Shown: piece after piece, positions 54,515 through 57,531 of the stretch
Position numbering within the stretch: the first letter of the stretch is position 1
Layout: each line of letters opens with the position of its first letter
Origin: a bacterium
Lineage (GTDB): Bacteria > Patescibacteriota > Doudnabacteria > UBA920 > 2-01-FULL-46-14
Assembly: GCA_030700065.1 (NCBI GenBank)
Contig: JAUYKH010000041.1
Location: 4,659-68,658, forward strand
Direction: 5' to 3'
Length of the DNA: 64,000 bases
Program-made: the position numbers and the translations under genes
Notes under the pieces: generated by a model
Told to the model about the DNA's origin: nothing
Seen by the model: only the letters and a program-made list of their open reading frames with translations
Databases searched by the model: none

Positions 54515-54829
54515 ATGGACAATTCCAAATTGGTTTCCCGGTCTCTGCTTCACGCATTAGGCGTATTGGTTTACGTTTCAGCTGTGGCCTGGATAATGAC
54601 GAACGGCGACCGGCTCTTTGGCCGCGTGGAGGATACAATTTTTGGCCCAATGGTGTTTCTGCTTCTCTTTGTAATATCGGCTACCGTCGTCGGTTCACTC
54701 GTCTTAGCAAAACCAACAATGCTATATCTTGCCGGCCAAAAAGAAGAAGCAATCAAATTTTTCACGTATACTGTTGGGTGGTTGGTAGGAATAACAGTTT
54801 TGCTTATTGCGCTTTTGGCCACCCGTTGA
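54515..54829 (+). CDS. Small 3-TM membrane protein, unknown function
   Basis: ATG start 86 nt downstream of the promoter, with three hydrophobic segments. Preferred over the overlapping out-of-frame 54421-54858 ORF. Confidence 0.4.
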   Translation: MDNSKLVSRSLLHALGVLVYVSAVAWIMTNGDRLFGRVEDTIFGPMVFLLLFVISATVVGSLVLAKPTMLYLAGQKEEAIKFFTYTVGWLVGITVLLIALLATR

Positions 54830-55121
54830 CTTTTTGTACGAAATTTGCTATTAATTAATTGGATTATGATCCCGTCTGACACAGCAGACGAACGCTCTTA
54901 CGCAAAGCTGTGTAAGAGATTTTTGTTAGAGTGCTCGCAAACGTTTCGCTATTGATGGTCTTCTTACAAATTTTTATTTGAGCTGATTGGGCTTCTGCTT
55001 GAGTTCCCCAAAAGGGTCCCAAAAAATCGCGCAGCGGTTTTTGGGGAAGAGGGGGATTCGAGCGGAAGTTGCAGAGAACTCGCTTGCGAGTTTGCGTAAA
55101 CCGCAGCTCCGAATCATCCGA

Positions 55122-55196
55122 GGTGCCTGTAGTTCAATGGCCTGCCCGCCATCGCAAGCATGAGCTTGCTCAGGCGTTGCGGGCGGGTAGAACGCC
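55122..55196 (+). pseudogene. 5' fragment of tRNA-His (G-1, acceptor, D-arm; 28 nt) interrupted in the D-loop by a 47-nt GC-rich hairpin insert
   Basis: GGTGCCTGTAGTTCAATGG (55122-55140) + insert 55141-55187 (CCTGCCCGCCATCGCAAGCATGAGCTTGCTCAGGCGTTGCGGGCGGG) + TAGAACGCC (55188-55196). Identical to positions -1..28 of the intact tRNA-His 250 nt downstream. Confidence 0.45.
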
Positions 55197-55203
55197 TAAA
55201 ATC

Positions 55204-55440
55204 ATGTATTATACTTACGTTTTGGTAAGTAAAAAAGACGAGAAACAATATATTGGTTGGACCGATGATTTAAGACACCGAGTTGATCAGCACAATAAAG
55301 GATTGGTGAATGCGACCAAGAATAGAAGGCCTTTAACCCTGGAATATTATGAGGCCTGCAGGAGTAAAAGCAAAGCCATTGCTCGAGAAAAGTATTTCAA
55401 AACAGGGTTTGGCAGACGTTATTTGAAAAATCGGTTTTAA
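55204..55440 (+). CDS. GIY-YIG nuclease-family protein (UPF0213/YhbQ-like, 78 aa)
   Basis: MYYTYVLVSKKDEKQYIGWTDDLRHRVDQHNKG..EYYE..AIAREKYFK has GIY-YIG motifs. The in-frame N-terminal extension of the ORF track overlaps the tRNA fragment and is rejected. Confidence 0.65.
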   Translation: MYYTYVLVSKKDEKQYIGWTDDLRHRVDQHNKGLVNATKNRRPLTLEYYEACRSKSKAIAREKYFKTGFGRRYLKNRF

Positions 55441-55443
55441 TAT

Positions 55444-55518
55444 GGTGCCTGTAGTTCAATGGTAGAACGCCGCTCTGTGGCAGCGGTCACGAGGGTCCGA
55501 TTCCCTTCAGGCACCCCA
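55444..55518 (+). tRNA. tRNA-His (anticodon GTG) with genomically encoded G-1 and 3' CCA
   Basis: 8-bp acceptor G(-1)GTGCCTG/CAGGCACC, D-stem GTTC/GAAC, anticodon stem CCGCT/AGCGG with loop CTGTGGC, T-arm GAGGG-TCCGATT-CCCTT, then CCA. Confidence 0.75.
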
Positions 55519-55580
55519 CCAAGAAGGCATACCCAGTATTGACCGAAGTGCCTAAATAGATAGATTAGTTTAGCCAGACA

Positions 55581-55607
55581 AAAAATCGCCGAAAGGGCGG
55601 TTTTTTG
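55581..55607 (+). terminator. Rho-independent terminator (A-tract/hairpin/T-tract), simple member of a repeat family
   Basis: AAAAAATCGCC-GAAAG-GGCGGTTTTTTG. Confidence 0.5.
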
Positions 55608-55620
55608 TTATGGTGTAGAT

Positions 55621-56013
55621 ATGGAGAGTTACCAGAACGAACAGCAGAAACTATACCTTGAAGAACTGAAAGAGGTTTCTAAAAGGCGTAGTTTGAGAAA
55701 TGTTACTTTGCTTTCTGCTATGATAGAAGCACATATTTTTTCTTTGGCAAAAACATTTTTAGAGAAAAAAGGCGTTATTTATAGCCCATCAGAATTCGAC
55801 GAATATAGGATGTCAATAAACATTTTAAAATCTAATAATTTATTATCTCCAGACGAGTTAAGAGATGTTAATGAATTTCGTAGGTACAGAAAAGAGATTT
55901 TTCATAACCTATTTAAAGGAAAGCTAACCCGGGCTGGTTTGAACGACAACATTAATAAAGCTTGGACGATTGGTAAGAAGGTTGTTAAAAAATTGTCTCT
56001 TAAACAATTGTAA
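55621..56013 (+). CDS. Hypothetical alpha-helical protein with HEPN-like Rx4H motif
   Basis: 130 aa with ..EFRRYRKEIFHN.. (R-x4-H) near the C-terminus. Weak call. Confidence 0.35.
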   Translation: MESYQNEQQKLYLEELKEVSKRRSLRNVTLLSAMIEAHIFSLAKTFLEKKGVIYSPSEFDEYRMSINILKSNNLLSPDELRDVNEFRRYRKEIFHNLFKGKLTRAGLNDNINKAWTIGKKVVKKLSLKQL

Positions 56014-56056
56014 GAGTTTTATTTTTTGTTATGATAAACCCCGACCGGGGATATCA

Positions 56057-56410
56057 ATGATTTATTTAATAATAATTGGAATAATCGTTGTTTGGTCCAT
56101 AATTGCGTGGGCTGTTAGCAAATATAGGCAAGGAATACGCGACCGCGCCGCCCATGCCGTTTTAGATGACTTCAATTTTGAAGCCGAGAAACAAGAAATT
56201 CTCAATTTGGTTCCCGGCATCCTTCCCGCACCTCTACTTAATAAAGTGACTCATCAAAAGGAATTAGAAATTTACGCGCTTCGGAAAGAATACGAAAAGC
56301 AGTTTTGTCCTCGCGATCACGGCATTATGGTCCGTCGAGTTGGACACTATGGAACATTTTGGGGATGTGGTAATTATCCGAGATGCACATATACTAAGAA
56401 TAAATTGTAG
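56057..56410 (+). CDS. Membrane-anchored protein with C-terminal topoisomerase-type C4 zinc-ribbon
   Basis: MIYLIIIGIIVVWSIIAWAV TM helix. C-terminal CPRDHGIMVRRVGHYGTFWGCGNYPRCTYT matches the zf-C4_Topoisom pattern. Confidence 0.5.
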   Translation: MIYLIIIGIIVVWSIIAWAVSKYRQGIRDRAAHAVLDDFNFEAEKQEILNLVPGILPAPLLNKVTHQKELEIYALRKEYEKQFCPRDHGIMVRRVGHYGTFWGCGNYPRCTYTKNKL

Positions 56411-56412
56411 AC

Positions 56413-57531
56413 ATGGGATATTTTGAAACAAAAAAAGCAGATTTAGAAAATTTGATCGCCACTATCAGTAAAGAGAAGGCTGCTTTTGAGCAGGTCTTAA
56501 AAAGCGAAGTTGTATCGCTTGAAGATAAGATTTCTTGGTTTGAAAAATTGAAAGAGGGTGTTCAACAAATGGCTAAGGAGCGACAAGTTGGTTTTCCGTG
56601 GCTAGCAGAGGCCTACAAGGAGTTGTTTAAAATGCGCGATGAGGTTCTGGTTAAATACCTTAAGAATAAAAAACATGCTGCTATCCAAGCCAGTGAAGTT
56701 GTGAGAGAACAAGGCCGTTTGCGGCGTGAGGCGGTTAAAGAGGCAAAGATCGCCCAATACCTGGTCCAATACTATGAATCAATGGCCCCGTTCCTTCTAG
56801 ACTTTAAAGAGGAAGTCGATGTACCGACAGAAGAGGATCGGAAGTTGTTAGAGGAATATTCAGTCGAAGAAAAGCAGGATGAAGTTATTAGCTTTCTTGC
56901 AAAAGAAGAGTACAGAAAATTGCCAAGTGTAGAAAGAAATCAAATGGCACTCGACCGTTTTTGGAAGCGCCCGAAATCAAAGTGGTTAATTGGGCGGCTA
57001 TACGAGAGGTATGTTGGGTATCTTTATGAAGAGCAGGGTTATAACGTCGACTATATAGGCATTTTTAGAGGTTTTGAAGATTTGGGACGCGATTTAATTT
57101 GTAAAAAAGGGAATGAATTTATTATTATCCAATGCAAAAATTGGGCGCAGTTCAGAACGATATATGAAAAGCACATCTTCCAGTTCTTTGGGACAGTTTT
57201 TCAATATAAAGATGAAAATCCTGATAGACTCGTTAAGTCAATATTCTACACTGCCACGTCGCTTTCTGACCTTGCACGAAGATTTGCGAAAGAACTCGGC
57301 ATCGGCTTAATGGAAAATTTCAAATTGGATCAGCAGTACCCTTGTATCAAATGTAATATCTCCAAGGTCGATGGTACAAAAATATACCATCTTCCTTTTG
57401 ATCAGCAATATGATAAGACCAAGATTGAAGTTAAACGGGGAGAGTTTTATTGCAAAACCGCAAAAGAAGCCGAAGATAAAGGATTCAGGAGGGCGTTCCG
57501 ATATAAAGGTCTATCCAAGTCGAAAACGTAA
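56413..57531 (+). CDS. Restriction-endonuclease-fold (Mrr_cat, PD-(D/E)xK) nuclease-domain protein with N-terminal coiled-coil region
   Basis: YLYEEQGYNVDYIGIFRGFEDLGRDLICKKGNEFIIIQCKNWAQ is the Mrr_cat-type D..(E/Q)CK core. The N-terminal 200 aa are charged and helical. Confidence 0.55.
   Translation: MGYFETKKADLENLIATISKEKAAFEQVLKSEVVSLEDKISWFEKLKEGVQQMAKERQVGFPWLAEAYKELFKMRDEVLVKYLKNKKHAAIQASEVVREQGRLRREAVKEAKIAQYLVQYYESMAPFLLDFKEEVDVPTEEDRKLLEEYSVEEKQDEVISFLAKEEYRKLPSVERNQMALDRFWKRPKSKWLIGRLYERYVGYLYEEQGYNVDYIGIFRGFEDLGRDLICKKGNEFIIIQCKNWAQFRTIYEKHIFQFFGTVFQYKDENPDRLVKSIFYTATSLSDLARRFAKELGIGLMENFKLDQQYPCIKCNISKVDGTKIYHLPFDQQYDKTKIEVKRGEFYCKTAKEAEDKGFRRAFRYKGLSKSKT

Follow-up and report, generated by a model that had tools for sequence, protein, structure and literature searches.

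The window, by which we mean the whole 64-kb stretch of DNA that was analysed, contains an intact tRNA-His gene preceded on the same strand by a truncated copy of its own 5′ end; the truncated copy is interrupted by a GC-rich palindrome and followed by a small GIY-YIG nuclease gene (Table 1). The original prediction had described an exact repeat of tRNA-His nucleotides -1 to 28 that is split in the D-loop by a 47-nt hairpin insert, with a GIY-YIG ORF 7 nt past the fragment and then the full tRNA-His. Direct reading and a repeat finder confirmed these coordinates, with identity to the tRNA at 19/19 positions for the left part of the fragment (A) and 9/9 for the right part (B). A and B are contiguous in tRNA coordinates and together run from G-1 to nucleotide 27 of tRNA-His (28 nt), the palindrome (H) splitting the copy after the GG of the D-loop. 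The 19-mer of A occurs exactly twice in the 64 kb, where none is expected from 100 shuffles, and the 47-nt H occurs once in the window. As ssDNA, each strand of H folds into a hairpin (-16.3 and -14.5 kcal/mol; z -3.8 and -2.6). The whole unit measures ~320 bp.

Table 1. Features of the tRNA-His locus in the window
Feature	Position	Strand	Basis or remark
A: truncated left copy of tRNA-His, G-1 to D-loop GG, 19 nt	55122..55140	+	identical to 55444-55462
H: 47-nt GC-rich imperfect palindrome	55141..55187	.	arms CCTGCCCGC / GCGGGCGGG, inner stem GCAAGC/GCTTGC
B: truncated tRNA-His copy resumed, TAGAACGCC, D-stem 3′ strand into anticodon stem	55188..55196	+	identical to 55463-55471
s: spacer TAAAATC, 7 nt, ahead of the ATG	55197..55203	+	direct reading
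Stand-alone GIY-YIG nuclease gene, Slx1/UPF0213 type, 78 aa, stop included	55204..55440	+	PF01541
Gap TAT, 3 nt, stop codon to G-1	55441..55443	+	direct reading
Intact tRNA-His(GTG), encoded G-1 and CCA, functional target copy	55444..55518	+	ARAGORN; Rfam RF00005, 61.6 bits
Terminator-like hairpin and T tract	55578..55608	+	inverted repeat; weak Rfam hits IS128 and AgrB cover only the terminator-type stem-loop

ARAGORN called tRNA-His(GTG) at 55445-55518; G-1 at 55444 faces C73 at 55515, and the CCA at 55516-55518 is encoded, as had been predicted. The upstream fragment was called neither a tRNA nor a member of another RNA family by ARAGORN or Rfam, which reported only 55445-55518. Rfam searches of the window and of the orthologous loci L081 and L083, at gathering and at permissive thresholds, returned tRNAs and terminator-like noise only. 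A longer recognised ncRNA that might have included the fragment was therefore not found, since Rfam placed no family there besides the downstream tRNA. The hairpin and T tract beyond the tRNA are the probable end of a transcription unit comprising fragment, ORF and tRNA. On the other side, the hairpins that had been named between 54830 and 55121 are present, and 54895-54918 with its T tract forms a terminator-like site that probably belongs to the upstream gene; the ~290 nt upstream of the fragment are mostly outside the element. When the 300 nt upstream were compared between the window and L081, a global alignment was uninformative and a local comparison gave one shared 53-nt motif only.

GIY-YIG genes are often intron-encoded and tRNA genes are classic integration sites, which might point to the remnant of a group I intron or intron-encoded homing endonuclease, or to an integrase-type island at tRNA-His; an assembly artefact might also produce such a repeat. 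The protein does match TIGR01453 (E 0.0016), but with 18.6 bits against a cut-off of 56 and over the GIY-YIG motif only, and between 54700 and 55700 no Rfam intron or other RNA family appeared at E<=10 beyond tRNA/terminator-like noise, the downstream tRNA being uninterrupted. Consistent with the earlier remark that the pattern is unlike the product of a tyrosine integrase, the window holds no integrase (the neighbouring ORFs tested are not integrases) and no second tRNA-His 3′ end with <=3 mismatches. Assembly duplication of the 28 nt is excluded because the same layout is present in >50 independent assemblies, including the tRNA-His loci L081 and L083. We regard this group of explanations as exceedingly improbable.

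The nuclease

The 78-aa protein matches the Pfam GIY-YIG family (PF01541) with E 3.6e-16 over residues 1-71, and residues Y5, Y16, G18, R26, H30 and E62 are invariant in 40 sequences, which makes the GIY-YIG catalytic set complete; mean column identity is 68%. Its AF2 model (pLDDT 96.9) has a beta-beta-alpha-beta-alpha-alpha order. Profile searches matched 1zg2 (5.6e-8), 1ywl (7e-7) and SLX1 7wme (0.006), and Foldseek gave TMq values of 0.69-0.72 (rmsd 2.0-2.2) for 1zg2 and Slx1 but only 0.47-0.52 for I-TevI, the nearest folds being UPF0213 BH0048 and Slx1. Judged by sequence and fold, the protein is a member of the GIY-YIG superfamily from the minimal Slx1/UPF0213 branch, in line with the YhbQ-like assignment made at the outset, and the nuclease is of the structure-specific Slx1/UPF0213 type rather than an I-TevI-type homing enzyme. 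I-TevI/Seg-type C-terminal DNA-binding modules are absent; according to Pfam and AF2, all 78 aa are catalytic domain. Membership in this family predicts cleavage of branched, flap or cruciform DNA.

A look-up of the window's own protein by exact sequence returned no record. Searches with the 78-aa protein returned 757 homologues at E<=1e-5, and the family comprises 687 clusters (50% identity, E<=1e-10). Between the window and L081 the ORF differs at 11, 8 and 35 of 79 first, second and third codon positions, respectively, and dN << dS, showing that it is under purifying selection. A neighbour-joining tree of 80-odd proteins and nearest-neighbour comparisons were star-like, with no donor-recipient pairs. 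Viral contigs, phage records and plasmid records searched for the protein were essentially empty, and the element is chromosomal, neither phage nor plasmid. Prokaryotic stand-alone Slx1-like GIY-YIG proteins were described as a family and catalogued in 2006 with "function unknown", and a TrmH-GIY-YIG fusion led the authors to propose an RNA role for them (PMC1564403). The observations below now attach a concrete genomic behaviour to this family.

Recurrence at tRNA and protein genes

Other copies of the 47-nt insert and other GIY-YIG/tRNA pairings were sought in relatives, as had been suggested, and many were found. Among 86 homologous ORF copies, 65 have the layout of the window, in which a conserved palindrome interrupts a 5′ tRNA fragment and the ORF and an intact tRNA follow in that order. 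H lies within the 5′ end of the sole tRNA copy in 9/86, and the ORF lies within H in 6-7/86. A same-strand tRNA starts between -40 and +160 nt from the ORF end in 67 of the 82 copies with sufficient downstream sequence, compared with 0/82 on the opposite strand; a first count, which misses ORFs running into the tRNA, had placed the tRNA start <=20 nt past the stop in 44/86. The tRNAs targeted represent 13 isotypes, and in every case ORF and target gene point the same way. Truncated fragments 5′ of the ORF could be parsed at 51 loci, where 37 are identical to their tRNA and B has a median length of 8 nt (0-15); the spacer from B to the ATG has a median of 11 nt and is not conserved among loci. 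Insertion points in tRNAs cluster at D-arm junctions (after nucleotides 9, 12-13 and 17-21), and others fall in T-loops, in anticodon loops (L120, L115) and in the apical loop of H itself.

Protein genes are targeted by the same logic. The N-terminus of an epimerase is the target in L013, L040, L048 and L140, and C-terminal ends are the targets in L105 and L121/L141; mirror-image cases at 3′ ends also occur. In L067, the element sits inside a GxxExxY-type gene without duplication. The two target copies in L140, L137, L099 and L083 derive from different functional genes, so local duplication is not the whole story. The two copies in L140 differ at synonymous positions only, which refutes tandem duplication followed by pseudogene decay for that locus.

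These data bear on the two origins that the original prediction had offered for the fragment. The first, a GIY-YIG-associated insertion into, or homing to, tRNA-His that duplicated part of the target, gains support from the recurrence of the layout at 13 isotypes and at protein genes. The second is a decayed tandem tRNA-His duplication that received a hairpin by chance and has an unrelated GIY-YIG gene between its copies. Tandem tRNA genes are common and the fragment is a perfect copy of its neighbour, both of which such decay would accommodate. However, the fragment stops at nucleotide 27 and the 3′ part has left no trace, and the conserved hairpin, the constant co-orientation and the return of the three-part layout with a homologous ORF and hairpin at 13 isotypes would go unexplained. 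We consider decay of this kind very improbable.

The partner tRNA varies among the closest relatives of the window (His, Lys-UUU and Lys-CUU, in a poorly resolved tree). Its closest tRNA-His relatives, L081 and L083, have the same tRNA-His site occupied, and no empty allele of the window's own locus was recovered among close relatives. Copy number also varies: some loci carry arrays, with decayed older units on the upstream side of newer ones (L016, L034, L026, L066), L087 has two units where L095 has one, and the ORF of L096 is reduced to its last 15 codons.

The palindromic partner

The arms of H read CCYGCCYGC / GCRGGCRGG in all copies and thus have the form of terminal inverted repeats (TIRs); across the family, H is GC-rich and 32-62 bp long. 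A member of the H family lies 6-62 nt 5′ of the ATG (median ~19 nt) in 65 of the 86 ORF copies. The exact 41-nt core was found on 61 metagenome contigs, and ~27 of these copies have no adjoining ORF, so that dispersed, non-autonomous copies are present, as in a MITE. Orientation is evenly divided (33:32), and at the orthologous loci L081 and L083, H is the reverse complement of that in the window, with 45/47 and 46/47 positions identical. Compared with L081, the window differs at 2/47 positions in H and 1/28 in the left tRNA copy, against 35/79 (~44%) at ORF third positions (binomial P 1e-9 and 2e-6, respectively). H is homogenised within a locus. We conclude that the 47-nt insert is not incidental: the nuclease gene has in it a palindromic partner that is conserved, is present in many copies and flips in orientation.

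Target-site duplication around H is absent in the tRNA fragments, where A and B are contiguous. Repeats of 7-8 bp flank H in two intergenic cases only (L088, L118) and may be due to chance. In L036, a second hairpin family is flanked by a 4-nt repeat.

We considered whether the nuclease gene and H could be two unrelated elements: the ORF would be a free-standing homing endonuclease gene of the ordinary kind, whose insertion duplicates a long and variable part of the target, and H an independent MITE mobilised by other means, found in truncated copies by survivorship because D-arm insertions elsewhere are lethal. Such independence would fit the solo H copies far from any ORF, the MITE-like occurrence of H in either orientation, the presence of several different or nested H copies in single fragments (L086, L045, L079, L119) and the identical H cores that adjoin ORFs only 57-74% identical to the window's protein. 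It fits poorly with the absence, among the 86 ORF copies, of any with an upstream truncated copy clearly lacking H (0/86), and with the short median distance from H to the ATG. In addition, no other candidate transposase lies beside solo H copies, and at 6-7 loci the ORF lies precisely at the apical loop of H, bounded by two half-palindromes (TIR-flanked ORFs were seen in L040, L048, L051, L062, L065, L067 and L075). We therefore think two separate elements unlikely.

Alternatively, protein and hairpin could form a host-function cassette that serves expression of the tRNA operon, as a leader hairpin, processing signal or RNA nuclease, and is kept by selection, the fragments being old duplications. 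The strong conservation of the protein (its column identity and dN << dS), its strict co-orientation with and adjacency to tRNA genes, the conserved H and left fragment that the window shares with L081, and the TrmH fusion behind the earlier RNA-role proposal (PMC1564403) would all be in keeping with a host function. Against it, the partner tRNA changes among close relatives (with the caveat on tree resolution given above), protein genes and non-essential genes are also targeted, as in L067 with no duplication, and H is present in either orientation, whereas an RNA signal containing G-U pairs should work less well in one of them. The tandem arrays, ORFs in decay and differences in copy number are, moreover, typical of selfish DNA. 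We judge a host-function cassette to be decidedly unlikely.

Proposed mode of insertion and known systems

Our preferred explanation, to which we assign a probability of about 70%, is that fragment, hairpin and nuclease gene are one copy of a selfish nuclease-plus-palindrome element that is widespread in Patescibacteria (CPR). On our best reading, the element's insertion sites are the ends of essential genes, those for tRNAs included, and an intact copy of the gene remains alongside; its mobility we infer from its distribution only. At such an insertion, the 5′ end of the target (28 nt here) would be doubled, the upstream copy being truncated and split by H, the nuclease gene lying at the junction and the downstream copy remaining functional. 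The ORF has no recognisable promoter and would probably be transcribed from that of its target, with RNase P probably freeing the ORF transcript from the tRNA. The nuclease, having no DNA-binding domain, probably reads DNA shape, as presented by H when extruded as a hairpin or cruciform and by stem-loops in tRNA genes; repair of breaks at such shapes probably copies H, together with the ORF, from another copy. The survivors would be those insertions that leave the gene intact, through partial duplication of the gene end or, alternatively, where the GGG(C) end of H rebuilds the 5′ end of tRNA-Lys. Homologous recombination or homing could then carry an established unit into the corresponding gene of related genomes, and units could stack as arrays upstream of a tRNA.

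Several simpler schemes were tried and rejected. Simple target duplication by a staggered cut is contradicted by the position of H inside one copy instead of between copies; an IS-circle junction by the order of the arms, since H has the left one before the right; and RNA-mediated duplication from a transcription start by the protein-gene cases, which begin at the ATG. None of the models that we tried fits all layouts, and we can name no single DNA transaction that would place H in the truncated copy and the bare CDS at the junction with the target-derived B between them.

A more far-reaching possibility, which we hold only tentatively and would rather bet against, is that prokaryotes have a DNA transposon or homing system of a new kind, in which the 78-aa structure-specific nuclease takes its specificity from DNA or RNA shape together with base pairing. 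A-H-B would pair with the intact target to give a three-way junction, the nuclease would cut it, and the break would be repaired from the element, so that the flanks of H act as a copyable guide. Guidance by pairing would explain why H and the left tRNA fragment have changed far less than expected under neutrality, why some fragments accompany the element into a diverged orthologue, how H is homogenised within a locus and how any gene end could become a target. With a shape-specific mini-nuclease and a palindrome, and possibly target-derived flanks, the question of how sites are found is directly testable in vitro.

If our preferred explanation of a single selfish element is right, a very small (~320-bp) element would employ an enzyme type not listed among bacterial transposases, and mobile DNA would have a non-lethal way of inhabiting essential single-copy genes in streamlined genomes. 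The element would also explain why CPR assemblies contain truncated tRNAs, broken contigs and "GIY-YIG" gene calls that are too long.

No published description of the element was found in open-access text, and the systems closest to it each share some of its features. REP/REPIN sequences with RAYT likewise combine dispersed short GC-rich hairpin repeats, many of them without an ORF, with a small nuclease gene that they flank, but RAYT is a Y1 HUH enzyme rather than a GIY-YIG nuclease, and REPINs are extragenic, with no targeting of gene ends and no partial gene duplication. Tyrosine-integrase islands also target tRNA genes and preserve the tRNA by partial duplication. In those islands the 3′ part is duplicated and attL/attR enclose kilobases, whereas in the present case it is the 5′ part that occurs twice, in a unit of ~320 bp that has no integrase.

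Mobile endonuclease ORFs of fungal mitochondria, such as the GIY-YIG ORF at Allomyces atp6, carry a replacement piece of the gene they invade: the endonuclease lies at the end of an essential gene, the duplicated end keeps that gene intact and the displaced pseudo-fragment stays behind. These cases concern 3′ ends of organellar protein genes, are not known to have a hairpin element and involve larger enzymes. The resemblance is seen in L140 and L137, where the two target copies come from different functional genes; our element differs in that mostly tRNA 5′ ends are targeted and H invariably interrupts the displaced fragment.

Phage T4 SegB offers a precedent for a selfish GIY-YIG gene that lies between or beside tRNA genes and is inherited with flanking tRNA sequence (PMC2330249). 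SegB-type enzymes, however, exceed 200 aa, have DNA-binding domains and recognise sequence, and their genes reside in phage genomes with neither partial target duplication nor a palindromic partner, whereas the present nuclease is a chromosomal 78-aa protein of Slx1/UPF0213 type in CPR bacteria. The same bacteria carry GIY-YIG ORFs in rRNA genes, within insertions that belong to neither the group I nor the group II introns and are mostly located at the tip or base of an rRNA stem-loop; the paper describing them regards these ORFs as rare and outside homing, and presents no palindrome, tRNA targets or target duplication (PMC11270868). These rRNA-gene insertions are plausibly the form with the ORF inside H of the same or a related element.

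The tRNA-His locus and its recurrence

The original prediction described a split duplication of the 5' part of tRNA-His, with a GC-rich hairpin (H) between its left piece (A) and its continuing piece (B), followed after 7 nt by a GIY-YIG ORF and then by the full tRNA-His with G-1 and an encoded CCA. Every descriptive element of that account proved correct, because direct reading of positions 54600-55900, ARAGORN, Rfam, and the domain search agree. A and B together comprise 28 nt, G-1 through nt 27 of tRNA-His, and are identical to the intact gene at 28/28 positions; G-1 of the intact gene lies 3 nt past the ORF stop codon. The 19-mer GGTGCCTGTAGTTCAATGG occurs twice in the 64 kb and not at all in shuffles. 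H is present as a single copy in the window, and each of its strands can fold into a hairpin. Given the perfect left copy and the intact ORF, the locus is a well-preserved member of a large, apparently undescribed family.

Parts of the element in order, in general form and at the window's locus
Part	General form	Window position	Strand	In the window
X'	First part; 0-20 nt of tRNA leader
A	tRNA 5' end, ending within the acceptor or D-arm	55122-55140	+	GGTGCCTGTAGTTCAATGG; second copy 55444-55462
H	Palindrome, arms CCYGCCYGC / GCRGGCRGG	55141-55187		47-nt GC-rich imperfect palindrome between both tRNA pieces
B	Next 0-15 nt of tRNA, contiguous with A	55188-55196	+	TAGAACGCC; second copy 55463-55471
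s	Short unconserved spacer
ORF	GIY-YIG gene, after s	55204-55440	+	78 aa, full GIY-YIG domain; start 7 nt past B
X'	Leader repeated, between ORF and intact tRNA
Intact tRNA	Last part; functional copy	55445-55518	+	tRNA-His(GTG); ARAGORN; Rfam 61.6 bits; CCA encoded

Close relatives of the ORF number in the hundreds; almost all measure 78-80 aa and almost all come from Patescibacteria (CPR). We fetched 80 genome loci and scanned them for tRNAs (L-numbers below denote loci). Downstream sequence was sufficient for 82 ORF copies, of which 67 were followed by a same-strand tRNA starting at -40 to +160 nt, usually after a gap of 0-20 nt, and none by an opposite-strand tRNA; 13 isotypes were represented. 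When the 115 nt upstream of each ATG were set against the downstream tRNA, the window's architecture was seen repeatedly. In 51 loci parsed automatically for part lengths and H position, H (32-62 nt) broke the tRNA copy after one of nt 3-21, most often 9, 12-13, or 17-21, positions at the borders and in the loop of the D hairpin; A was identical to its tRNA in 37, and median lengths were 8 nt for B, 1 nt for X', and 11 nt for s. The target-derived B always stands between H and the bare coding sequence. Two of the closest relatives, L081 and L083 (82% and 74% aa identity to the window protein), occupy tRNA-His and carry H at the point seen in the window; L082 (76%) occupies tRNA-Lys(UUU), and its H differs from the window's by a single base. 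In L016, L026, and L066, units form arrays whose older decayed members lie upstream.

These comparative loci support a GIY-YIG-associated insertion or homing event into tRNA-His with partial target duplication, as had been proposed. The alternative offered with it, a decayed tandem tRNA, is not supported, and neither is an assembly artefact, since the same architecture recurs at other loci. Rfam assigns no family to the fragment or to the preceding 290 nt, and an intron is not supported; nor is an integrase island, with no repeat of the tRNA-His 3' end present in the window.

Layouts and target genes

Among 86 ORF copies, 65 have the window's layout (type II), nine are type III, and six or seven are type I. 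Type III is found at tRNA-Lys genes starting with GGGC and runs ORF, ~25 nt, GGGC, H, and remainder of the tRNA, without duplication; the tRNA 5' end is regenerated by the GGG(C) that terminates H. In type I (L040, L048, L051, L062, L065, L067, and L075), the ORF lies exactly in the apical loop of H and is flanked by two half-palindromes, as in a TIR transposon. Protein genes are also targets, via both type I and type II copies. At NAD-epimerase genes (L013, L040, L048, and L140), the part affected encodes the N-terminal GGAGFIGS, with the truncated copy upstream and the intact gene downstream, as at tRNAs. The target in L065 has a glycosyltransferase-like start, and that in L067 is a non-essential GxxExxY-type gene without any duplication. 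Mirror images exist: L115 has an intact tRNA-Leu, then the ORF, then a 3' fragment whose anticodon loop contains H; L120/L124 have T-loop fragments downstream of an intact tRNA-Leu; and in L121/L141 and L105, C-terminal ends of protein genes are duplicated. The general rule is that the ORF lies at the junction of an intact gene and a truncated gene-end copy, with H within the truncated copy. A host function in tRNA operons is very hard to credit, being difficult to square with target switching and protein-gene targets as well as with the arrays, the decay, and the orientation-free H.

The palindrome, the nuclease, and selection

A metagenome scan for other copies of the insert found the exact 41-nt core of the window's H in 61 contigs. 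A GIY-YIG ORF lay no more than ~40 nt away from ~35 copies; ~27 were solo, mostly in truncated gene-end copies of the same kind. Some of these are deletion derivatives, since L096 retains only the last 15 ORF codons beside H. L087 carries two tandem A-H-B-s units and L095 one in otherwise identical sequence, and intergenic H copies in L088 and L118 are flanked by 7-8-bp repeats. A free-standing endonuclease gene accompanied by an unrelated MITE, one whose insertions persist only where the fragment is already dead, is an improbable explanation: no ORF copy has an H-free fragment, and the ORF-inside-H form exists.

H is oriented 33 versus 32 times relative to the ORF and is flipped in place between orthologous insertions. 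The window's H matches that of L081 at 45/47 positions as reverse complement and 35/47 directly; flipped comparisons give 46/47 for the window versus L083 and 38/40 for L002 versus L023. The arms have a 4-nt period, and covariation at T3/A45 and T7/A49 fits helices shifted by 4 nt with a 4-nt tail left. Because the palindrome is orientation-free and sequence-conserved, this pattern favours a role for H at the DNA level, as a hairpin, cruciform, or protein site, over a role in RNA.

The family profile matches the UPF0213 proteins BH0048 and EF2693 (solved) and an SLX1 homologue. The AlphaFold model, which is confident (pLDDT 96.9), is nearest to BH0048 and to the Slx1 nuclease domains (TMq 0.69-0.72, rmsd about 2 A) and clearly more distant from I-TevI; 78 aa leaves no space for a DNA-binding domain. 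PMC6902002 and PMC9071465 describe Slx1-type enzymes as cutting branched DNA near the branch point, and by analogy the window nuclease may do likewise. A 2006 superfamily survey listed prokaryotic stand-alone Slx1-like proteins without assigned function (PMC1564403). The family comprises 687 clusters at 50% identity (E<=1e-10) and is essentially absent from the viral contigs, phage records, and plasmids searched.

Members also occur in MAGs not labelled CPR (L067 and L075, titled Desulfobacterales/Desulfobacteraceae; L077, Sedimentisphaerales; L070, Margulisiibacteriota), reflecting either binning error or true spread past Patescibacteria; numerous further MAGs titled uncultured Gammaproteobacteria or Bdellovibrionales seem to be CPR genomes that were mislabelled automatically. 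Many contigs (L007, L029, L037, L038, L090, and L093) end inside the element or just past it, probably because short-read assembly fails at the repeated tRNA piece and the multi-copy hairpin. In gene calls, the ORF is often given a start too far upstream, so that the fragment is included and the product reaches 100-125 aa.

Between the window and L081, the 79 codons of the ORF differ at 11, 8, and 35 first, second, and third positions and at 9/20 fourfold sites, so that the protein is under purifying selection and neutral divergence is about 44%. H differs at only 2/47 positions (binomial P ~1e-9) and the left tRNA copy at 1/28 (P ~2e-6). The two tandem units of L034 differ at 43/79 third positions of their ORFs, whereas their 67-nt A-H-B modules are identical and have deviations from the tRNA in common. 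H and the sequence directly beside it are thus either under strong constraint or copied anew time and again, with gene conversion around H as one possibility; either would suit a cis-acting recombination-initiation site.

Proposed mechanism, related systems, and neighbouring sequences

Our model builds on the conserved nuclease gene and palindrome, the varied gene-end targets, co-orientation, arrays, solo derivatives, and flipped H. The ORF is strictly co-oriented with its target gene, no recognisable promoter for it was found in the window, and extended -10 boxes lie directly upstream of the left copy in many loci. The ORF would be transcribed from the target's promoter, and RNase P would separate its mRNA from the tRNA. 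Insertions are found in the D-arm, anticodon loop, and T-loop, in L075 at a terminator-like hairpin, and at the tip of H; the nuclease would recognise shape, namely the H hairpin or cruciform and tRNA-gene stem-loops. Breaks would be repaired by copying another element copy, and selection would retain only products with an intact essential gene, whether through partial duplication or, at tRNA-Lys, through the regenerating GGGC. Ordinary homologous recombination could then carry the element to the corresponding gene of related genomes. In several loci, the two gene copies derive from different functional genes: those of L140 differ only at synonymous third positions, those of L137 are two distinct tRNA-Leu(CAG) sequences, and B of L083 has GCC as in the window's tRNA versus ACT in its own. 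Because these copies differ in origin, a piece of the target travels with the element. Formally, all layouts correspond to "ends-in" (Campbell-type) integration of an X'A-H-B-s-ORF segment.

Organellar endonuclease ORFs bring a replacement gene end and, like REPIN/RAYT hairpin repeats, are among the closest systems. T4 SegB, a free-standing GIY-YIG homing gene in a tRNA cluster (PMC2330249), is another, as are the GIY-YIG-encoding, non-intron insertions of CPR rRNA genes (PMC11270868), which may be the ORF-inside-H form. In none of these does a minimal Slx1-type nuclease occur together with a flipping palindrome and duplicated gene ends, and we found no published account of the architecture in open-access papers and bioRxiv. 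We class the element with selfish nuclease genes or TIR elements; its targeting principle has a modest chance of being novel.

Most of the ~290 nt preceding the fragment lie outside the element. At 54874-54928, 45 nt past the stop of an upstream 104-aa membrane-protein ORF, is a terminator-like double hairpin (GTCTG-ACACAG-CAGAC and CTCTTAC...GTAAGAG with a T tract), without an Rfam match. L081 retains it at 213-265, where the stem has changed in a compensatory way to GCATG/CATGC. The loop of the first hairpin, ACACAG, could pair with CTGTGT of the second, so the motif might conceivably work as a terminator/antiterminator switch. The ~190 ORF-free nt at 54930-55121 contain long hairpins (CCCCAAAAGGG... 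and AACTCG-CTTG-CGAGTT) whose sequence is not conserved in L081, which has other long hairpins at the same place; they may be the unit's promoter/leader region or remnants of other palindromic elements. Three ORFs at 55621-57531 follow directly on the tRNA-His terminator and may form a small defence or mobile island: one of 130 aa had no Pfam match, one of 146 aa has a topoisomerase-type zinc ribbon, and the 372-aa product weakly matches an Mrr-like restriction nuclease.

In L036 (767-1440), a single tRNA-Lys is preceded by two distinct, nested GIY-YIG ORFs. The second comes from another subfamily, and its small hairpin, CCCCGATTAAATCGGGG, is a different one that lies between copies of the 4-nt repeat TCAA; the gene-end strategy therefore seems common to several nuclease/hairpin families. 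L018 (428-502) has a second tRNA-Ala(GGC) downstream of the intact one, still called by ARAGORN, with a divergent 5' end and yet another small hairpin in its D-loop. The tRNA-Asn/tRNA-Lys genes after the element in L031 (~2740-2900), L071 (~2790-2900), and L103 were missed by ARAGORN and appear interrupted in the anticodon loop, which fits the group I introns reported in Patescibacteria tRNA genes (PMC13011429). In L132 (1400-1700), an H copy lies inside a minus-strand tRNA-like gene with a further ~100-nt insertion between T-arm and D-arm.
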